Positions 1,323 through 15,005 of a stretch of 15,223 bases of DNA are shown here, one piece after another. The position numbers and the translations under genes were made by a program. The notes beneath the pieces were generated by a model. The model had not been told where the DNA came from and made no database searches. It saw only the letters and a program-made list of their open reading frames with translations. The stretch's first letter is position 1. Each line of letters opens with the position of its first letter. The stretch lies in NCBI GenBank assembly GCA_030668875.1, contig DAOVER010000061.1, positions 1-15,223 of the forward strand, in the 5' to 3' direction. Origin of the DNA: Candidatus Heimdallarchaeota archaeon. GTDB lineage: Archaea > Asgardarchaeota > Heimdallarchaeia > Heimdallarchaeales > Heimdallarchaeaceae.

Positions 1323-4300
1323 GTGTTTATTATCAATCAGAGTTACGTAGGAATCAATATCGGATCAGTATCTGTTAATTTTGTAAATATTGATGATGAA
1401 AGCAACATTAACATAATTAAAAGACCGCATCTAGGTAAACCTAGCGAAGTTTTAGATGAAATTCTAGCTGAGAACCAATCTCTAAAAGAATGCTTCTATA
1501 ACGTTAGTGGTTCATTTGGTGACGTCTCAGAGGTTGTAGCAGTTGAACGAGGTGTCCATTCGTTTGAAGAAAAATTCGATGTTATTATTTCTCTAGGAGG
1601 AGAAGCTTTTGTTCTATATGTTTTGGATGAAGAAGGACACATCGTTAATGTTCTTTCTCACGACAAATGTGCAGCGGGTAGTGGTGAGTTTTTCATCCAA
1701 CAAATTGATAGGCTAAATATTTCTCTTCCAGAAGCGATTTCTTTGGCTAAAAAAGGAAATAAAATAGAAATAGCTTCTCGATGTTCAGTGCATTGTAAAT
1801 CGGATATTACTCATAAATTGAATCGAGGAGAAGCTTCCGTTGAAGATGTTCTAGCATCTGTTCTAGCAAGTATGGCAAATAAAATCAAAGGGTTGATATT
1901 CCAATCCAGAGTAGATGTAAAACGTGTATTACTCATAGGTGGAGTTGCGCTTAATGATGCTTTTGTGAGAACTCTAAGAGAACAATTAGAAGATGTAGAA
2001 GTCGTAGTTAAAGATGTTAGCCCGGTTTTTGAAGCTTATGGGTCTGCGCTTTTAGAGAAAGATTCCCCTAAACAAACAGAGCTGAAATTGAAAATAAGCA
2101 AGAGTTTTTCCACATTACCTTCTCTGGAGCAATTCAGCGAACAGGTAAAAATAATACCTTCTGTGGAAAATAAAAAAGACTTTGCTGAAAATACCTCTTT
2201 CATTTTAGGTGTTGATGTAGGTTCAACCACAACAAAAGCTGTTCTTTTAGATCCAGCTGATATGGCGATCGTAGCATCTCACTATGGTAGGACAAGTGGA
2301 AATCCAGTAGAAGCTACAAGGAAATGTATCCAAGAAGTTATATCACAAGTTGGAAATCAAAAGATAAAATTACTTGGAGTCACAGGGTCTGGAAGACAGT
2401 TAGTCGGTGCTTATCTAGGTACATCAGCTGTTTATAATGAAATATCTGCACATTCCGAAGGAGCAGTTTACTATGATGAAGATGTTGATACCATCTTTGA
2501 AATTGGAGGCCAAGATTCAAAGTACATGTTTCTCCAAAATGGCGTTCCTGTAGATTATGCTATGAATGCAAGTTGTTCAGCAGGAACAGGTTCTTTTCTG
2601 GAAGAAAGTGCTAAAGGTGACCTAGGAGTTACAGTCTATGACATAGCTGATGTAGCTATGAAAGCAAGTAATCCTGTTAGATTCCAAGCTGATTGTGCTG
2701 CGTTCATCAATACTGATGTTCGAACAGCTATGCAAGAAAATTATGGTCGGGATAATATCATCGGAGGTTTAGTATTTTCTATAGCTGTAAATTATTTGAA
2801 TAAAGTTAAAGGTTCCAGAGCAGTTGGTAAGAAAATATTTTTCCAAGGTGGTGTAGCAAAAAATAATGCTGTTGGTTATGCTTTTGCTCAATCTACAGGT
2901 AAGGAAATTGTTATCCCACCAAATCCTGAGCTTATAGGGGCTTTTGGTATTGCTTTAATTGCAAATAAAAAATACATTAACCATGAAATCGAAGGAATGT
3001 CTGAAAAAACAGACCTTCAGTCTTTAATCAGTGAAGAGTTAAAACAGATGAGTAGTTTTACTTGTAAAGCATGCAAGAATTACTGTCAAATTGAGAGATA
3101 TGAAGTAGGGGGTCGCAAGTTTCCTTTTGGTGGAAGTTGTTCTAGATATGAACACCAGTGGAGAGGTTTAGAAAAGACTGAAGAAAAGGAAAATCTTGTT
3201 GATCTTCGAAATGATTTGGTTTTTGAAAATAATCTTAAAAAGAAGAAAATAATCGAAAATTCCAAAGGAAAAATTGGTATAACTAGAGCATTACTCACTC
3301 ACACACTTTACCCTCTTTTCTCCACATTTTTTGAGGAAATGGGCTTTGAAGTAGTATTATCTGATATTGATGAAGATAAAGAAGTTCTTACAAATGCTCC
3401 ATTTTGTTATCCAATACAAGTGCTACATGGAGCAGTAAACGATTTAGTAAAGAGAGATATACCTCGAATTTTTCTGCCACAAGTTCATACATTAGAGAAG
3501 GGAGAAGAGTGGTTTGATGCCACATTCTGTCCAGTTACTCAATCCAGTCCATATTTCATAGCTGCTGCATTCAGAGAAACTAATTTTATTAGTCCTATCC
3601 TTAACTTTTCAGAAGGTTATGAAAAGGATGAAGCTTTAATTAAAATGGCTATTAAGGAATTAGAAATACCTAAAAAACTAGCTTTTGATGCTTACGAAAA
3701 AGCAGTGAAAAAACAAAAAGCTGTAGAAAAGCAATTTTTGGAATGGGGAAGAGAAACAATAAGAAAATTGAAGGAAAATAATGAAACTGGTATTTTGCTA
3801 CTTGGAAGAAGCTATAACGCTTTCCCACCAGAGACTTCGCAATTAATACCTAAAAAAATGGCTAGTATGGGTGTAACTGTCATTCCTTTTGATTTTCTCG
3901 AGAAAGAAAAGGTAAATGATATCCCTTGGTATTTTTCAAATTATGTGAAAATAGCTATAGATTTAGCAAAAGAAAATGACAATTTATTCATACTTTATAT
4001 TAACAGTTATAGTTGTACAATTGATGCGTTTGTGCAGAATTTTGTTCGTTCTGAGATGCGTTCAAAACCATTTTTAATTTTAGAACTTGACTCTCATACA
4101 GCTGATGCAGGAACACAAACTCGACTTGAAGCTTTTCTAGAAATAATTTCAAATTTCACAAAAAGTAAAAAGAAAGAAGATGAGAAACCATTCCAAGTAA
4201 CTAAAGTTAAGAAGCGAGATGGAAAAATTGTTGTTATAACTTCAGATAATAAGAGAGTTGATATTAAAGATCCAAGAATAAAATTATACTTCCCAAGTTT

Positions 4301-5507
4301 CTCTGACTTTCATGTTACTGCAATTGCTAAGTTAATGGAACTCTATGGTTTTCATCTAGGTGAAGTAGAACCTCTAAAACTTGATTATGCGGTGAGGGGA
4401 TTAAGACATACTACGGGAAAAGAATGTGTCCCATTACCAATTGTAATTGGACATATGCTTGAAGTAATTGAAAAAAGAAAACCAGGAGAGCTAATCGGAT
4501 TTTATATGATTCGAGGTGGAGCTCCTTGTGCTGTTTATAGTTACTTCCATTATTTAGAGCAATTCATAAAACAAAATAAATTGGAAAATGTTTTTATCTT
4601 TAGATTTGATCAATTAACTGGTTTTTTGGGAACTCCCTTCATACACATTGCCAGATTCGGTCCAAAAGTTACACTCTTAGGAGATCTTGTAGCTGAAGTT
4701 GATAGTGCTCTAGAAGTTGTAGGTGAAAAAGGTAGTCAAGTATTATTGTTACAACACTGGAATCAGTTCTTAGACGAGACTACAAGTCTAAATAATTTTA
4801 ACAAGAATTACAGACGTTTAATTAAAAATATTGCAAAAATACCTAAAAATAGCTCCCCAAAGGATCATCCAAAAGTTCTCGTAAGTGGTGACTTCTTTGT
4901 CCGTTTTAGTCCTTTCTTCCTTAAGGAACTAAAAGAAATATATTCTCAACATGGTATTATAGTCAAATCCACAGACCTGTTTGAACTTCTACTATATGGT
5001 AATTATCATCTCGCAGATACTACTTCACGAAGAATGAATGCTGATGCATTTAAACTTACAACCTATGTCAAGGCTTTTGCAACAATTTGGAAACACAATT
5101 CGCGATTATTTATTATTAGTAAACTTGGTCCTATTCTTTTACAATTTCTAGAGAGAATACACAGAAGGAAATTCAGTAAAACAGGTCTTCTTTATGCTGG
5201 ACCAAACGATTTGCGTGAAATTTACAAACAATCAAAACCTTGGATCTCCTCAACCATTTTTTGCGAAGCAATCCCCACTATTGGTAAAGGGCTGGAAACA
5301 CTAGAAAATTCTACTTTTGATTCCTTAGTTCTAACTGGTCCTTTGAACTGTTTACCTTACAAAATCTCTCAAGCAATTCTCAAACCTATCTATCTTGAAA
5401 ATCACACTCCTTTTTTGGTTTTTGATGTTGATATATCAGCTATTTCACCCAACACTAGAAGGTTAATTAACGCAAATATCGAACAAATAAAGAGAAGACG
5501 GAAGTAG
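1323..5507 (+). CDS. Multidomain acyl-CoA dehydratase-activase-family protein (2x BadF/BadG/BcrA/BcrD ATPase + CxxCxxxC..C linker + DUF2229-like + dehydratase-like); PlsA/Ger-like architecture
   Basis: Domain 1: GINIGS, SLGGEA, KCAAGSG, RCSVHC. Domain 2: GVDVGSTT, EIGGQDSK, SCSAGTGSFLE, DCAAF. Linker: CKACKNYC...GGSC. Then KIGITRAL, CYPIQVLHG, FCPVTQ, GRSYN, SCTIDA, ELDSHTADAGTQTRLEAF. C-terminal: GKECVPL, GAPC, GDFFVR, GPLNCLP. GTG start at 1323. Confidence 0.9.
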   Translation: MFIINQSYVGINIGSVSVNFVNIDDESNINIIKRPHLGKPSEVLDEILAENQSLKECFYNVSGSFGDVSEVVAVERGVHSFEEKFDVIISLGGEAFVLYVLDEEGHIVNVLSHDKCAAGSGEFFIQQIDRLNISLPEAISLAKKGNKIEIASRCSVHCKSDITHKLNRGEASVEDVLASVLASMANKIKGLIFQSRVDVKRVLLIGGVALNDAFVRTLREQLEDVEVVVKDVSPVFEAYGSALLEKDSPKQTELKLKISKSFSTLPSLEQFSEQVKIIPSVENKKDFAENTSFILGVDVGSTTTKAVLLDPADMAIVASHYGRTSGNPVEATRKCIQEVISQVGNQKIKLLGVTGSGRQLVGAYLGTSAVYNEISAHSEGAVYYDEDVDTIFEIGGQDSKYMFLQNGVPVDYAMNASCSAGTGSFLEESAKGDLGVTVYDIADVAMKASNPVRFQADCAAFINTDVRTAMQENYGRDNIIGGLVFSIAVNYLNKVKGSRAVGKKIFFQGGVAKNNAVGYAFAQSTGKEIVIPPNPELIGAFGIALIANKKYINHEIEGMSEKTDLQSLISEELKQMSSFTCKACKNYCQIERYEVGGRKFPFGGSCSRYEHQWRGLEKTEEKENLVDLRNDLVFENNLKKKKIIENSKGKIGITRALLTHTLYPLFSTFFEEMGFEVVLSDIDEDKEVLTNAPFCYPIQVLHGAVNDLVKRDIPRIFLPQVHTLEKGEEWFDATFCPVTQSSPYFIAAAFRETNFISPILNFSEGYEKDEALIKMAIKELEIPKKLAFDAYEKAVKKQKAVEKQFLEWGRETIRKLKENNETGILLLGRSYNAFPPETSQLIPKKMASMGVTVIPFDFLEKEKVNDIPWYFSNYVKIAIDLAKENDNLFILYINSYSCTIDAFVQNFVRSEMRSKPFLILELDSHTADAGTQTRLEAFLEIISNFTKSKKKEDEKPFQVTKVKKRDGKIVVITSDNKRVDIKDPRIKLYFPSFSDFHVTAIAKLMELYGFHLGEVEPLKLDYAVRGLRHTTGKECVPLPIVIGHMLEVIEKRKPGELIGFYMIRGGAPCAVYSYFHYLEQFIKQNKLENVFIFRFDQLTGFLGTPFIHIARFGPKVTLLGDLVAEVDSALEVVGEKGSQVLLLQHWNQFLDETTSLNNFNKNYRRLIKNIAKIPKNSSPKDHPKVLVSGDFFVRFSPFFLKELKEIYSQHGIIVKSTDLFELLLYGNYHLADTTSRRMNADAFKLTTYVKAFATIWKHNSRLFIISKLGPILLQFLERIHRRKFSKTGLLYAGPNDLREIYKQSKPWISSTIFCEAIPTIGKGLETLENSTFDSLVLTGPLNCLPYKISQAILKPIYLENHTPFLVFDVDISAISPNTRRLINANIEQIKRRRK

Positions 5508-5607
5508 AGAGTTTTAGATTCTTTCTGAAAATAAGAAAATTTAATAAGTTTTACGAACAAATAATGAGGAAGACCTTAAAAATGTGCATTTCTAGAATGA
5601 GGATATT

Positions 5608-6678
5608 ATGTCTAAACCAATCAATTCTTTCAAACATATTGAAATGCCTGAGTTACTTTCCCTTGGACAAGGTATGCTCAAATATCTACCAGAGATTATT
5701 GATAAAGTTGCTTTAAGAGGGAAGGGTTTGCTCATTACAGATGCTTTTCTTAGAGATAAATATGCCAAGGAAATTGAAGCAATAATGGAAGCAGAAAAAC
5801 GTGAGATTGTTGTCTCTGTTATTGAAGATAGTACACTTGCTGAAGTAGACAAACAGCTGCAATTTTTCAAAGAAATAGATGCTGGATATGCTATTGGTCT
5901 AGGCGGTGGAAGACCTATTGATGTTGCAAAACTTACTTCTTTCAAAGCTGACAAGCGATTCATATCTGTTCCTACAATTGCAAGTCACGATGGTTTAGCC
6001 AGTTCAAGAGCTTCACTAAAAGGTGTAGACAAACGACATTCTATAGAAGCTCGTCCACCGATAGCAGTTGTTGGTGATACTGACATTTTAGACAATGCGC
6101 CTTATAGATTTACTGTAGCAGGATGTGGAGATGTTATTGCTAAAAAAACAGCGGTAAAGGATTGGTTACTAGCTCATAGATTAAAGAATGAGTTAATCTC
6201 ACCTACCTCAATTTCTCTATCAGAAATGACTGTGAAACTCATTACAGATAATGCAAAACTGATTAGAAGTCAAGCAGAAGGATTCAGCAGAGTTGTTATG
6301 AATTGTTTGATCGCTAGTTCGTTAGCAATGTGCACTGCAGGCTCATCCAGACCTGGAAGCGGATCTGAACATATGTTCAGTCATGCATTAGATTCTATTG
6401 CAAAAACTCCTGCACTACATGGAGAACAAACAGCTTTTGGAACTATCATGATGGCGTATTTACATGATGGTATGGAAGGATCAGATGGAGTAAAAGAATT
6501 AATGCATACATTAGGTCTTCCTATTACTGCAAAAGAATTAGGTGTAACAGCAGAAGAAGTTATCACAGCATTAGAAATGGCTCACACTATTAGAAAACGA
6601 TTCACAATTCTAGGATCCGAAGGTTTAAGTCATGAAGCAGCTACAAATGTAGCTCTTAAAACTGGAGTAATAAATTAA
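5608..6678 (+). CDS. egsA: NAD(P)-dependent sn-glycerol-1-phosphate dehydrogenase
   Basis: GGGRPIDVAK, VPTIASHDGLASSRAS, GCGDVIAK, SSRPGSGSEHMFSHALD and HGEQ (Zn ligands); 356 aa; GAGGA Shine-Dalgarno-like motif just upstream of the ATG. Confidence 0.95.
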   Translation: MSKPINSFKHIEMPELLSLGQGMLKYLPEIIDKVALRGKGLLITDAFLRDKYAKEIEAIMEAEKREIVVSVIEDSTLAEVDKQLQFFKEIDAGYAIGLGGGRPIDVAKLTSFKADKRFISVPTIASHDGLASSRASLKGVDKRHSIEARPPIAVVGDTDILDNAPYRFTVAGCGDVIAKKTAVKDWLLAHRLKNELISPTSISLSEMTVKLITDNAKLIRSQAEGFSRVVMNCLIASSLAMCTAGSSRPGSGSEHMFSHALDSIAKTPALHGEQTAFGTIMMAYLHDGMEGSDGVKELMHTLGLPITAKELGVTAEEVITALEMAHTIRKRFTILGSEGLSHEAATNVALKTGVIN

Positions 6679-9328: not shown

Positions 9329-10519
9329 ATGGGATTCATTGCTGAAACTGTATATATCTCTATAGTTTTCGTTTGTCTTATTTATTTAATCTCTCTATTC
9401 AAGAACAGTATCACAGAATGGGTAATTTTGGAGATTGACGAAAAGGATTATCCTTTAGTCAGTATTATTGTTCCTACTTTGAATGAAGAATACAACATAA
9501 GTAATTGCTTAAACAGTCTAATGAATCTAGATTATCCAAATAAAGAAATCATAGTTGTGGATGGAGGATCAATAGATAAAACTTCAGAATACGTTTCGAA
9601 TTATCCTGTCACATTTATATGCGAACCTTACTTACCTGATGAATGGATTGGAAAATCTTATGGTTGCCACTTAGGCTACCTTGAGTCAAAGGGAGAAATC
9701 TTACTGTTTACAGATGCAGATACACAACATTCTCCTCAATCTTTGAAAATAGCTGTAAGTCATATTTTAGGAACAGAAGCTGATTTGTTCTCAATGCAAC
9801 CCTATCAACAATGCAAAAGATGGTATGAATATCTGGTTAGCTATTTCTATTTCTTAGGTTTCATAATAGGTGGGCCTACAAATGATATTAATAATCCATA
9901 TGACAAAGAATCTTATTTGGCGATTGGACAATACATGATGTTTACTCGGAAGGGGTATGAGAATCTTGGTGGTCATCTAGCAGTTAGAAAATCACTAGTA
10001 GACGATTTGTCCCTTGCTAAACTATGTAAAGAGAAAGAAATGAAATTAAATTTTATTAACTCTTCTGATTTAGTCTCAACTAGAATGTATCCTAACAGTT
10101 TTTTGGATTTTTACAATGGTTTCAAAAAAAGTATTGCTGGCGGAATACTTACAGTGACATTCTTGAGATTTCTGTTTGCAATGTTCTGGTTAATTTATTA
10201 TTTGTTAGCTCCTTATTTCTTGATACTCTATTTTATCACAAAACCAGACTGGTATGTGTGGGATTATGGTATAGGCATAGTTGTGAATGTGGGCCTGTAC
10301 TTAGCATTTGCAGTCAGTGTTTGGTTGTACTGGAGGAAAAAAGGAGATTGGAAATGGTATTTTTTCCTATTTTTCCCTATTACAATGTCAATAGATTTCA
10401 TTCTGATTGTAACCGCCATCTATTCAGGTTTCCGTGGAAAGAAAGTTGTATGGAAAACAAGATACTACTCCACTAAACAAAGCTCATCGAAACCATTAAG
10501 TAGTGAAATAGAGCAGTGA
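9329..10519 (+). CDS. Membrane-bound GT2 glycosyltransferase (CrtQ/CruC/HpnB-like, lipid-acceptor type)
   Basis: N-terminal TM; VSIIVPTLNEE, EIIVVDGGS.D.T, W.GK..GC, FTDADT, GQYMMF.R..YE..GGH.AV, DDL.LA, RMY; about 3 C-terminal TM helices. Confidence 0.88.
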   Translation: MGFIAETVYISIVFVCLIYLISLFKNSITEWVILEIDEKDYPLVSIIVPTLNEEYNISNCLNSLMNLDYPNKEIIVVDGGSIDKTSEYVSNYPVTFICEPYLPDEWIGKSYGCHLGYLESKGEILLFTDADTQHSPQSLKIAVSHILGTEADLFSMQPYQQCKRWYEYLVSYFYFLGFIIGGPTNDINNPYDKESYLAIGQYMMFTRKGYENLGGHLAVRKSLVDDLSLAKLCKEKEMKLNFINSSDLVSTRMYPNSFLDFYNGFKKSIAGGILTVTFLRFLFAMFWLIYYLLAPYFLILYFITKPDWYVWDYGIGIVVNVGLYLAFAVSVWLYWRKKGDWKWYFFLFFPITMSIDFILIVTAIYSGFRGKKVVWKTRYYSTKQSSSKPLSSEIEQ

Positions 10520-10738
10520 GTCTCTGTGTTGATGTTGAATGTGATCGGTTGCAAATGTGTGATAATAACGATTGAAATAAAGTGAAGGAAAACTAGTCGC
10601 ACTCTTAAATTTGTAAACATCTTTTATATATCATCATTCACCTTGAAATCAAGGGAAATATGGTTATCTAGGTATTTAAGACTATACTTTTCAGAATTAA
10701 CAAACAAATTTTATTAATGATAATACTTAGTGTATAGT

Positions 10739-11299
10739 ATGTCCAAAGTATTGATTTTCAATGGCAGCCCTAGGAAAAAAGGCAATACTGTTGTTTTAAT
10801 TAATGAATTCACAAAAGCTCTTACTGAATCAGATGTTGAATTCGAAATCTTTCATCTGAATGAGATGAACATCAAACCCTGCCAATACTGTAATTGGTGT
10901 GTCAATAACAATTCACTCTCTTGTGTGCAAAAGGATGATATGAATGATTTGTATCCCAAGTTACTTAACTCAGAAAAAATAGTTCTAGCTTCTCCCATTT
11001 TTTGGTTTAATATATCTGCTCAGATGAAATTGTTCATAGATCGTCTCTATGCTCTTCAAGGTGAAAAGGAATACACCTTAACAAAGAAGAAGTTTGCGAA
11101 TATTCTAGTGTATGGAGCTAATAATCCTGAAAGCTCTGGAGTGTTTAATGCAATAGGATTTCTAGAAGACATGCTGAGATTTATGAACAATGAGATAGTA
11201 GGTACTGTTCATGGTACGGCACATAAAATAGGTGATGCTGCAAAAAATCTAAAACTTCTAGAAAAGGTTTATGACCTTGGAAAGAAATTTGCAAGTTAA
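10739..11299 (+). CDS. Iron-sulfur flavoprotein / flavodoxin-fold NADPH-dependent FMN reductase family
   Basis: NGSPRKKGNT FMN loop; CQYCNWC-x7-C matches the Isf CX2CX2CX4-7C motif; also ASPIFWF and QMKLFIDR. Start is ATG 10739 or GTG 10730. Confidence 0.88.
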   Translation: MSKVLIFNGSPRKKGNTVVLINEFTKALTESDVEFEIFHLNEMNIKPCQYCNWCVNNNSLSCVQKDDMNDLYPKLLNSEKIVLASPIFWFNISAQMKLFIDRLYALQGEKEYTLTKKKFANILVYGANNPESSGVFNAIGFLEDMLRFMNNEIVGTVHGTAHKIGDAAKNLKLLEKVYDLGKKFAS

Positions 11300-11343
11300 A
11301 ATAAAAAAAAAGAAAAGCGAAGTTTGTTAGATCTTAGACTTCA

Positions 11344-11862
11344 TTAGAGATATACTCTTATGAACCCAGCCATCAATGGAGGGCCACCAGGATAAATACT
11401 TGCAAATTCCCCTTTAACAAATATCTTATAGTCTCCAAGTGTTCCATGAGATGTAAATTTTCCTGAAGTGATTCCATGATCAAATCCTAAAACAGTTACA
11501 CCTGCCCATTCTAGAGCTAATCCTCTATAACCCCCTGCTTGATTCCAAACACCTACAAAGCAATTGGTTCCTTTCCCACCACCTAACTTTGTGATTAGAT
11601 CAATTCTGAAAACTTCTGCTGTTGCATAAACTAAGCCTGTCATCATATCCTCACTATCTATAGAGAATATCCACGAATTGTCCTTCTGGTGAAGAACCAT
11701 GTCTTCATCAATCCATTGAACAGCCGGACCTGTTGTGGAAACTAGGTATTCCATAACGGAGAAATTAAGTGTGGTTGTTTTGGCTTGTGTTGGTAAACTG
11801 CCAGAGGCTATAAATCCAGCAAGAACTAACAAGCTGATTATTGCTATTTTTTTGTTCTTCAT
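11344..11862 (-). CDS. Secreted hypothetical protein, beta-strand-rich
   Basis: Signal peptide MKNKK + hydrophobic core + TQA-K; AGAAGG upstream of the start; the A-tract at about 11300-11316 would read as a U-tract terminator on this strand. Confidence 0.75.
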   Translation of the reverse strand: MKNKKIAIISLLVLAGFIASGSLPTQAKTTTLNFSVMEYLVSTTGPAVQWIDEDMVLHQKDNSWIFSIDSEDMMTGLVYATAEVFRIDLITKLGGGKGTNCFVGVWNQAGGYRGLALEWAGVTVLGFDHGITSGKFTSHGTLGDYKIFVKGEFASIYPGGPPLMAGFIRVYL

Positions 11863-12072
11863 ATTTTTCGCCTTCTTTAAGTAAGATCTCAGTTTATAAT
11901 TTCTGAAGTCTTAAGCTAGACAATTAACTGTTCACAAGATAAATATACCTCATGTGGGTTCTTGGATTACATACGTGAACCGTTGTACTGCGGTCTGATG
12001 TTTGGTTCTTTTTAATAATCACTAACTATTTGTGAATTTCGTATGTAATGCAAGGGACAACAAGCATATTTT

Positions 12073-12930
12073 TTATTCCTTGTCAAAAATAAATGAAAAA
12101 TCTTCAGGAGGTTCTTTTTTCTTTATTTTCCTTATCTTCTTAACATATTTCAAAAAGATTGAATATCTTTCAATAGTTTGTTTATCAGTTTGGTTTTCCC
12201 AGTCAGTTTCTGTCATAATCTCTCTGATTTGATTGACTAGAATGTTCAATTCTTCTGCAGGTAGATCATATGCTAACTTTTTAGCCAGAGTTATATTTGC
12301 TGTATCAACATCTGGTAAATCGTATCTTTGAATATCTTTCTCCCATGCTTCAAAAGATGGAGCAATCTCATCAGTAGAGAGTAAGTCGATAATTCTATCT
12401 ACAATGAAGGGTTCAAGTTCTTTGAATTTAGAATACGCCAAAGCATATTTTTTTGAGTATTCAATGTTAATCTCATAATAATCATCAGTTGGGAAGAGCT
12501 GATGGATACTTCTTATGATGAAAATTCCACTTGGGAAAGAGATTTGTAAATATCTTGCTCTATATGGATTATCTTCATAAGGTATTAACCTGATATCCTC
12601 TACTGACTCTTTTATTGATAATTTCCAAATTTTTGAAATAAATTTGAATAGAAAAGCTCCTGTGACTTCATCATCTTTATTCTTCAAAGGAAGAACAGGT
12701 AACCTTCTTCTGGACAAACCACTATATATCTTTCTAAAATCTGTTGTATTTATCTCGCTCCCTTTCAATTTGTAGTTTTTGGATTGAAACCTGATTTCAT
12801 CATCAATGTCTTGAATTTTCCAATCAGGTTTCTCAGTAGCATTTATTTGAAATACAGCTATTCTACTACTATCCTCTATATCTAGGATTTTTTCGAGTAT
12901 GAACCGTAGATTATTCGATTCATTATCCAT
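12073..12930 (-). CDS. Hypothetical soluble protein
   Basis: 285-aa ORF with coding-like composition, starting 24 nt after the GGR-family stop; no family recognised. Confidence 0.75.
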   Translation of the reverse strand: MDNESNNLRFILEKILDIEDSSRIAVFQINATEKPDWKIQDIDDEIRFQSKNYKLKGSEINTTDFRKIYSGLSRRRLPVLPLKNKDDEVTGAFLFKFISKIWKLSIKESVEDIRLIPYEDNPYRARYLQISFPSGIFIIRSIHQLFPTDDYYEINIEYSKKYALAYSKFKELEPFIVDRIIDLLSTDEIAPSFEAWEKDIQRYDLPDVDTANITLAKKLAYDLPAEELNILVNQIREIMTETDWENQTDKQTIERYSIFLKYVKKIRKIKKKEPPEDFSFIFDKE

Positions 12931-12954
12931 ATATAAAGTAAAATTACACTTTTT

Positions 12955-14331
12955 TTAAGTATTACCTAAAAAATTAGGCTCTAAGTCTTCAATTTCTTTG
13001 AATAGTTGCATAGACCTTAGTAACCATTCATGATATTTTCTAGTGTTATATTCTTTTGGTAATCTCTTATAGTGCTTGAAAATTTTATTGGCTTGCATAG
13101 TGAGTTTTCTGATATAGAGCATTAGCTTAATTCTTTTTATTCCCTTAAATGCTGTAAATACTGTTCTAAGTAAAGTTATTTTTCTGAATTTAGCATGAAT
13201 CATGTTTTCTAAATCTGTTCTAGTGACTATTTTTTTTCTCATAAGAAACGACGTGTCATCTTCACTCAGTTTCTGTAACCCCAACCTTAGGATATCAATT
13301 GCTGCTAAATATCTTCCTCTCTCCTTTGTAAATCGGACTTGATACTCCCACAAACTATCTATTGAAACTTCCTTTCTTCTAACAGCTGGTACGATTACTT
13401 CTGCTGCAATCTTTGCTGCAATCATAGCAGACCCTATCCCACAACCAGTGGTCGGGATTGTTTGGCAAGCAGCTTGCCCTACAAGCATGAACCCATACCA
13501 AGCCAAAGTAATCGGTCTTCTGATGACTATTTTATCTCCACCACCTCTAAGTTTCTTATTTTCAATTGATGCATTTGAATTGACAAAATCGTTTACCATA
13601 CCTTTTGGTGATTTATTTGTAATAGATTTTCCTACCCCAGCACCGATATCTAGCTCGTTCTCTTTCTCGAAATTTAACCAACTGAAGCCTCCATGATACC
13701 CATATCTATAATATAACGTGTCATGTTTTATTTCATGTTCTCCCCAATGAAGATTTTTTGAATTTATTTTATGTAACTCTCTATGAGCCTCAATAATATC
13801 TGATTTGTTAAGTTTAAGATTCAAATCTAAGATCTCAATATTCATGCCTAAAATACGCTCTCTTCCTGAACAGTCTACAATCATTCTTGCATTGTGAATA
13901 ATCTCATCTTTTGTTTTCACTCCTACTACCCACATTCCCTTCCCCATCGGTTCAACAACCTCTGTTTCAAATACAAATTCACAACCTGCTTTTTCAGCAT
14001 TTGATAACAATCTTTTTTGAAAGAGTTTTCTATCAACTATCCAATAATCGTAATAACCTAAATGAATTATAGTTTGTAAGTCGGGGGTAAGAATCGCAAG
14101 ATGATCGCGTTCATCTCTTATTTCCTCTCCTTTAGGAGGTTGAATTCCAGCAAATGTAAAGGCTTTTTTTTCTATTGAATCGCACCAATCTTCTGTTAGG
14201 TTGTCTCTTGATTTTTTCTCAATAACTTTCACTTTGATTTTTGCATTAGCTAGGTGAAAACCTAAAACACAACCAGCTATTCCAGCACCTACGATGATTA
14301 CATCATAGTTTTTCTCTTTCTTTTTAGACAT
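12955..14331 (-). CDS. FAD-dependent oxidoreductase, geranylgeranyl reductase family (divergent paralogue)
   Basis: YDVIIVGAGIAG Rossmann motif, VDRK.F...L...A...G, IVDCSG, and GQAACQTIPTTGCGIGSAM (GD-motif variant). The PxxYxWxFP motif is degenerate (GGFSWLNF). Confidence 0.82.
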   Translation of the reverse strand: MSKKKEKNYDVIIVGAGIAGCVLGFHLANAKIKVKVIEKKSRDNLTEDWCDSIEKKAFTFAGIQPPKGEEIRDERDHLAILTPDLQTIIHLGYYDYWIVDRKLFQKRLLSNAEKAGCEFVFETEVVEPMGKGMWVVGVKTKDEIIHNARMIVDCSGRERILGMNIEILDLNLKLNKSDIIEAHRELHKINSKNLHWGEHEIKHDTLYYRYGYHGGFSWLNFEKENELDIGAGVGKSITNKSPKGMVNDFVNSNASIENKKLRGGGDKIVIRRPITLAWYGFMLVGQAACQTIPTTGCGIGSAMIAAKIAAEVIVPAVRRKEVSIDSLWEYQVRFTKERGRYLAAIDILRLGLQKLSEDDTSFLMRKKIVTRTDLENMIHAKFRKITLLRTVFTAFKGIKRIKLMLYIRKLTMQANKIFKHYKRLPKEYNTRKYHEWLLRSMQLFKEIEDLEPNFLGNT

Positions 14332-14399
14332 TAGAAAACTGTAAGTTATTACTATTCTTTAGTTTTGTGCCAAAATACATAATAAAGGGAGATTTCCCT

Positions 14400-15005
14400 T
14401 CAATCAACACGTACTATAACTTCTAGTAAAAAGGTTAATCCTGCAAGTATAATAGCTGCTGGTAGTATCTTTAATGCATAAAGTATCTTGTTTTTTCCAG
14501 ATACAGCTCCTAGAAACATGCCTAAAGTTACAACTTCAATTACAACAAGACAGGTGGAAATTATATATGCTATAGTCATGGAACTTTCTATATCTGCAGC
14601 TCCTAAAACAAATAGAAATGGTATAATTGCAATTAACGAAAATATTAGGGGTGAAATACCATCTACGAATGCAGTTATTAATGATACCCATTTGTTAGCT
14701 TTCGAGATTTTTGTGTTGTCAAGATCTATTACCATTGCTTTTTCTAGTTCTTTTTGTTCTTTTGTTCTTTCAGCACTTTCTGTTAGATAAGCAATCCAGA
14801 AACCTGAAATTCCCATAGCAAAACTTGCACTCATTCCTGCGATAATTAGAATTGTAGGATCTGTTGCACCTGCAATCCATGAACCAAGAATAATTCCAAA
14901 CGCAGTTAAAGCTCCATCAAATCCATTCATCACAAAATATCTGCGTAAAATATTTTCTCCCTCAACCATAGACAAGTATTGTCTAAGATTATCAATTATT
15001 GTCAA
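14400..15005 (-). CDS. VIT1/CCC1-family (TIGR00267-like) membrane protein, possible Fe/Mn transporter
   Basis: RRYFVMNGFDGALT..GII.G, G...S.AMGISG..AYLTE.AER; about 5 TM helices; TTG start. Confidence 0.85.
   Translation of the reverse strand: MTIIDNLRQYLSMVEGENILRRYFVMNGFDGALTAFGIILGSWIAGATDPTILIIAGMSASFAMGISGFWIAYLTESAERTKEQKELEKAMVIDLDNTKISKANKWVSLITAFVDGISPLIFSLIAIIPFLFVLGAADIESSMTIAYIISTCLVVIEVVTLGMFLGAVSGKNKILYALKILPAAIILAGLTFLLEVIVRVD

Follow-up and report, generated by a model that had tools for sequence, protein, structure and literature searches.

Bacterial PlsA and Ger act on glycerolipids, in which they turn an acyl ester into an alk-1-enyl or alkyl ether. PlsA/PlsR of Clostridium perfringens (CPE1194/1195) has single-chain counterparts in Enterococcus faecalis and Lactococcus cremoris, and characterised single-chain PlsA genes span 4248-4920 bp (PMC12838417). 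Work in anaerobic E. coli demonstrated that Ger, a 'modified PlsA' of Thermotoga maritima (Tmari_0479) and Desulfatibacillum alkenivorans (SHJ90043), turns sn-1 esters into ethers (Sahonero-Canavesi et al. 2022, PMC13159169). The same study gave the Ger architecture as 'BBD...', reported its distribution as anaerobes only, listed homologs in Lokiarchaeota, including Prometheoarchaeum syntrophicum MK-D1, and in Heimdallarchaeota, stated that ether-lipid producers among the Acidobacteriaceae hold Ger homologs, and proposed that Asgard archaea may produce bacterial-type ether lipids. Here we describe a gene of this kind in a 15,223-nt stretch of DNA (the window), which is contig C42 of the metagenome-assembled genome G000 of a Heimdall-group Asgard archaeon (3.23 Mb, 92% complete). 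The gene stands directly upstream of egsA, encoding glycerol-1-phosphate (G1P) dehydrogenase, and the preliminary description of the window had read the pair as an undescribed hybrid route to ether lipids on a G1P backbone. With the Asgard homologs and the idea of bacterial-type ether lipids in print since 2022 (PMC13159169), the route cannot be called undescribed; the gene belongs to a known kind of enzyme, and its ether-lipid function is a prediction from sequence. Our favoured reading, held with modest confidence, is that the product is an Asgard-clade radical enzyme of the PlsA/Ger family and BCR/HAD type that would reduce a glycerolipid acyl ester to an ether, and that its adjacency to egsA reflects a recent move. 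The features on which the argument depends are as follows.

1323-5507, + strand: PlsA/Ger-like fused enzyme, 1394 aa, GTG start (open reading frame (ORF), domain, alignment, tree and fold matches)
1344-2060, + strand: first HgdC/BcrAD-type activase domain, about residues 8-245, limits approximate (Pfam, TIGR00241)
2205-2963, + strand: second activase domain, residues 295-547 (Pfam, TIGR00241, solved-structure matches)
3063-3140, + strand: Cys4 motif C581/C584/C588/C606 (12-homolog alignment)
3270-3896, + strand: DUF2229 (PF09989) domain (Pfam)
3942-5504, + strand: C-terminal BCR/HAD-like catalytic region (HGD-D at residues 874-942; fold of residues 560-1394)
5508-5607, + strand: spacer between the Ger-like gene and egsA, 100 bp (between the two ORFs)
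5608-6678, + strand: egsA, NAD(P)-dependent glycerol-1-phosphate dehydrogenase, 356 aa (profile match, tree, synteny)

Profile searches and alignment verified the proposed order of two activases, Cys4 motif, DUF2229 and dehydratase-like region in the 1394-aa ORF. BcrAD_BadFG was matched twice (202 bits, Pfam), TIGR00241 (acyl-CoA dehydratase activase, NCBIfam) scored 246 bits over two stretches, and DUF2229 scored 176 bits at residues 650-858; the HGD-D match at residues 874-942 was marginal, with 28.7 bits vs a cut-off of 28.4. The spacing C581-x2-C584-x3-C588-x17-C606 was unchanged in all 12 aligned Asgard and bacterial homologs, and this motif probably holds a metal or an Fe-S cluster. Also invariant in that alignment were cysteines of the cluster-ligand type in the first (C116, C154) and second (C418, C458) activase. 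The domain order and size fit PlsA/Ger as had been suggested, judged by the published PlsA gene lengths and Ger architecture. Like Ger, the window protein carries two PF01869 domains, PF09989 and HGD-D-like regions in one chain of about 1400 aa, and like PlsA/PlsR it shows the order Act1-Act2-Red1-Red2 with conserved [4Fe-4S] cysteines and a similar length. Whether the ether product would be vinyl, as opposed to saturated, is indistinguishable from sequence. Unlike the bacterial hosts of characterised Ger, this archaeal host encodes EgsA together with archaeal CarS and DGGGPS-like genes.

The C-terminal part was assigned by fold. In a sequence search against solved structures, the second activase matched HadI (4eht, E 9e-42) and HgdC (1hux, E 6e-36), MbdQ was also matched by the activase part, and no match was obtained beyond that part. 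An AlphaFold2 model of residues 560-1394 had a mean predicted local distance difference test (pLDDT) score of 81.5, and its top PDB fold matches were BzdNO, DCCP, HadBC and MbdON, each with probability 1.00, at 10-13% identity and target-normalised TM-scores of 0.37-0.47. On the basis of this model, the C-terminal 835 aa adopt a fold resembling that of BCR/HAD radical-enzyme catalytic subunits. The window protein resembles HadBC/HadI, HgdAB/HgdC, BzdNOPQ and MbdONPQ in its activase domains by sequence (E 1e-36 to 1e-42) and in its catalytic region by fold; unlike these systems, whose substrates are CoA thioesters, it fuses everything in one chain and adds DUF2229 and the Cys4 insert.

Among the 399 Asgard genomes surveyed, 53 contained orthologs with 43-93% identity (56% for the MK-D1 copy). 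A tree was built from 55 full-length homologs, in which Pseudothermotoga, Clostridiaceae and Desulfatitalea/Desulfobacterales sequences were used as stand-ins for the characterised enzymes. The main Asgard sequences formed a single clade with 100% support, placed within a subfamily together with proteins of Nitrospirota, Verrucomicrobiota, Acidobacteriaceae and Planctomycetota (42-49% identity). Homologs from Thermotogaceae, Clostridiaceae and Desulfobacterales aligned over the full length with 33-36% identity, the values for the Pseudothermotoga and Clostridiaceae stand-ins being 34% and about 34%, respectively. By its architecture the Ger-like protein is in the broad PlsA/Ger family and, as judged by the stand-ins, outside the part with known activity. 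A second, split PlsA-like DUF2229/HGD-D system was seen elsewhere in G000 (C92:1759-4103), with genes for a DUF2229 protein of 248 aa, an HGD-D-like protein of 149 aa and an HGD-D/DUF2229-like protein of 385 aa.

From its gene content, G000 could plausibly make acyl or alkyl glycerolipids. PlsY is encoded three times (for example at C87:5578-6303); one copy is over the TIGR00023 equivalog cut-off, and the flanks of the three genes contained no lipid-specific gene except an alpha/beta hydrolase. Fifteen genes encode DegV (fatty-acid-binding, FakB-like) proteins (e.g. C34:20032-21824 and C90:15672-16499), two encode AMP-binding ligases, and two ketoacyl-synthase domains lie in a single 3376-aa open frame at C39:9534-13124 that resembles a type I fatty acid synthase/polyketide synthase megasynthase. 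On the archaeal side, G000 has three copies of CarS, four paralogous FAD proteins of the geranylgeranyl reductase (GGR) family and, among UbiA enzymes, one DGGGPS-like protein besides heme O synthase and MenA; two models revealed no canonical GGGPS (PcrB family). A GlpD-type DAO_C domain was not found in this 92%-complete genome. Glycerol kinase (GlpK) is present, thus glycerol-3-phosphate (G3P) should also be available, and the G1P backbone that had been proposed for the acyl or alkyl lipid is possible but not forced. Two Dak2-domain proteins (221- and 261-aa frames) also occur in G000.

PlsY without detectable GGGPS was also the rule across the related families. All 57 genomes of Heimdall families f1-f4 and f7, which include the two closed Heimdallarchaeum genomes, had high-scoring PlsY, a gene that most other families lack; canonical GGGPS gave one strong match in these 57 genomes. 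Part of the Lokiarchaeal family f19, with MK-D1, likewise had no GGGPS, and almost every other Asgard family had it; with two models it went undetected in the closed Heimdallarchaeum genomes G015 and G016 and in MK-D1. Weak PcrB matches were considered as cryptic GGGPS and rejected for G018, G011 and G042, as these proteins and their G000 orthologs belong to the OMP-decarboxylase/HUMPS family; weak matches were also present in G052 and G054. DegV was expanded to 9-19 genes per genome in 30/30 f1 genomes and often lay 2-4 kb from the best-scoring PlsY. Homologs of PlsY and PlsC in Asgard archaea are already in the literature, and Imachi et al. (2020) reported that MK-D1 lacks GGGPS, yet phytane and biphytane ether lipids were seen. 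The pattern suggests that the first step of lipid assembly may be non-canonical, with few independent lineages behind it. In family f7 (G079-G090), EgsA was found in 0/12 genomes, GGGPS in none and the Ger ortholog in 12/12, with 4-8 copies of PlsY per genome; CarS was found in the single f7 genome checked. From gene content, f7 appears to lack the first two steps of canonical archaeal lipid synthesis.

We then turned to egsA, whose position had been the original clue. Its placement 100 bp 3' of the Ger-like gene on the same strand was verified, and the same order was found in two separately assembled relatives, G030 and G031, so the pairing is no assembly artefact. The product scored 405 bits against the G1P dehydrogenase model NF002022 (equivalog cut-off 413), compared with 435-460 bits for the other EgsA of the same genus. 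Like canonical archaeal EgsA, it matched the model over its full length (positions 4-350 of 350) and grouped with the EgsA of its own family in a tree; unlike them, it scored lower, sat on a longer branch and was encoded outside a conserved ancestral block. This block, e12-e11-e10-egsA-e2-e1-e9, is strongly conserved in eight genomes of this genus and a sister genus. In the corresponding G000 block (C38:58490-59957), e10 and e2 are separated by just 77 bp and egsA is absent. Therefore, the move of egsA to its place beside the Ger-like gene was recent and confined to one species group. Consistent with this, the pair was not widely conserved: of the best 30 Asgard loci, only those of G000, G030 and G031 (each with at least 90% identity) had egsA 3' of the Ger ortholog. 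G035 probably shares this order, and egsA was not beside the Ger ortholog at over 25 further Asgard loci, most of those in the same genus among them. Nor was egsA found in the wider flanks when neighbours were compared at 20 Asgard loci (about ±8 kb); 20 bacterial sister loci were compared at ±3 kb. In G035, the downstream flank of Ger and the upstream flank of egsA both run into one shared stretch of ~70 bp, inverted relative to each other, where contigs C82 (1-142) and C29 (4240-4966) end, suggesting that a small insertion flanked by repeats separates Ger and egsA in this relative.

The spacer points to separate expression of egsA. The preliminary description had placed a possible egsA promoter near 5540; TTTAATAA is indeed present there (5540-5547), but it is not strictly conserved among G000, G030 and G031. 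The conserved element is instead an AT-rich, TATA-like block ending in CCTTAAAAAT at 5574-5583, 25-34 nt 5' of the egsA ATG, and it is retained in all three genomes; ~28 bp of the window's spacer are absent from G030 and G031. Because this block lies directly 5' of egsA, it is probably a promoter element, and an own promoter for egsA is likely, as had been suspected. Given the recent move and the probable own promoter, the adjacency shows no dedicated G1P pathway, and as a clue it is of little weight.

Under the reading that we favour, the activase domains would inject low-potential electrons at the expense of ATP, and an acyl ester on a glycerolipid would thereby be reduced to an alk-1-enyl or alkyl ether, as in bacterial PlsA and Ger. 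The ester substrate would be supplied by the PlsY-type acyltransferases and DegV fatty-acid-binding proteins of this genome and the whole family. Several results weigh against this. The stand-ins for characterised PlsA/Ger fell into another subfamily, across a long internal branch, the subfamily of the Asgard clade is without any characterised member, and the placement relative to PlsA/Ger depends on these stand-ins, not on the characterised sequences themselves. PlsC, which the preliminary description had named together with PlsY, acyl ligases and DGGGPS that have at least candidates in G000, and with GGGPS that has not, was not found in this 92%-complete genome, nor were PlsX and the C-terminal domain of GpsA. 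No lipid gene was a conserved neighbour at the 20 Asgard or 20 bacterial sister loci. Furthermore, the ortholog occurs in MK-D1, whose lipids are reported as isoprenoid ethers and whose genome reportedly has no ester-lipid genes; nor was PlsY found there. These points lend some weight to a rather unlikely alternative, in which the protein acts on a non-lipid substrate, as a radical reductase or dehydratase of BCR/HAD type, and has only its architecture in common with PlsA/Ger. The NCBI name, merely 'acyl-CoA dehydratase activase', would suit it, and its closest bacterial counterparts come from MAGs of Nitrospira, Opitutaceae and Acidobacteriaceae, groups that include aerobes, in contrast to the anaerobes-only distribution given for Ger. 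What speaks against a non-lipid substrate is the colinearity over the full length, including DUF2229 and the Cys4 motif, with homologs from lineages that make ether lipids or plasmalogens, the statement that ether-lipid producers of the sister-clade Acidobacteriaceae hold Ger homologs, and the co-occurrence of the ortholog with PlsY in Heimdallarchaeia and with DegV in f1.

Two further explanations tie the enzyme more closely to archaeal lipid synthesis. The Ger-like gene and egsA could form a functional unit or operon, with an enzyme specific to G1P-based acyl lipids whose products would be fatty-alkyl or vinyl ethers with the archaeal backbone. The shared strand, the 100-bp spacer with no clear terminator and the retention of the order in G030, G031 and probably G035 agree with this, as do the position of egsA ~11.5 kb upstream of the Ger ortholog in two closed Heimdallarchaeum genomes, the failure to find GpsA in G000 and the acceptance of G1P by bacterial PlsY (PMC13400652). 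Nevertheless, we judge it decidedly unlikely: the adjacency is missing at the other Asgard loci, the ancestral egsA site lies elsewhere and is empty in G000, the conserved promoter-like block travels with egsA, G3P is available through GlpK, and f7 keeps the Ger ortholog in all 12 genomes without EgsA. In Asgard lineages without canonical GGGPS, the enzyme might alternatively help to form the first ether bond, from an ester made by PlsY or another transferase that is reduced and then receives its second chain from the DGGGPS-like UbiA enzyme. For the Heimdall archaea, DegV would supply the acyl group, PlsY would attach it, the Ger-like enzyme would reduce it to the ether and the DGGGPS-like enzyme would add an isoprenoid at the second position; if true, a mixed alkyl/isoprenoid ether membrane lipid would exist in the closest archaeal relatives of eukaryotes. 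Canonical GGGPS, counted at E<1e-30, occurs in 2/53 genomes with the ortholog vs ~280/346 without it, the closed genomes and MK-D1 (also per Imachi 2020) lack a detectable copy, the weak PcrB matches proved to be OMP-decarboxylase relatives, and CarS and one DGGGPS-like gene are retained. However, the pattern stems from two or three independent lineages only, the GGGPS-less genera g3, g4, g9, g10, g12 and g13 and family f25 are without the ortholog, and G130 has GGGPS and ortholog together. In addition, MK-D1 has isoprenoid lipids and no PlsY, a route to an isoprenoid acyl ester is not known, and a cryptic GGGPS or another prenyltransferase would be simpler. Owing to the few lineages, the GGGPS-less genera without the ortholog and the lack of PlsY in MK-D1, we rate both the general and the Heimdall form of this replacement as very improbable, an idea and not a finding.

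Two of the remaining genes of the window concern the surroundings of the Ger-like gene:

489-1172, + strand: calcineurin-like phosphoesterase (Metallophos), upstream of the Ger-like gene (Pfam)
12955-14331, - strand: GGR-like FAD protein of the geranylgeranyl-reductase family (profile scores below equivalog cut-offs)

The phosphoesterase was the sole recurring neighbour of the Ger-like gene, and within the genus only. Linkage to GGR was considered and dropped, as the block is common to G019 only and the neighbour in Lokiarchaea is a paralog with 25% identity. This block (10730-15005) comprises an FMN reductase, a 285-aa protein, the GGR-family FAD protein and VIT1, and in G019 it likewise lies 3' of the Ger ortholog. 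A family 2 glycosyltransferase (GT2) at 9329-10519 (+ strand) was closest to the hopanoid/carotenoid glycosyltransferases HpnB and CruG, far under their cut-offs, and has a paralog on C83 with 54% identity; it is possibly a lipid glycosyltransferase. No family match was obtained for the 172-aa and 285-aa proteins of the window.

According to a 2026 review, the lipids of Asgard archaea remain to be determined, and the gene bears on the membrane lipids of these archaea and on the possible shift of an archaeal host to bacterial-type lipids in eukaryogenesis. The bacterial-type fatty-acid and acyltransferase genes in G000 suffice to make the ether-lipid function worth an expression test, and the Ger-like gene is a concrete target, with an E. 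coli assay that worked for Thermotoga Ger. More broadly, the genome pattern of PlsY, DegV (in f1) and a common Ger ortholog with undetectable GGGPS predicts non-canonical lipids in Heimdallarchaeia.

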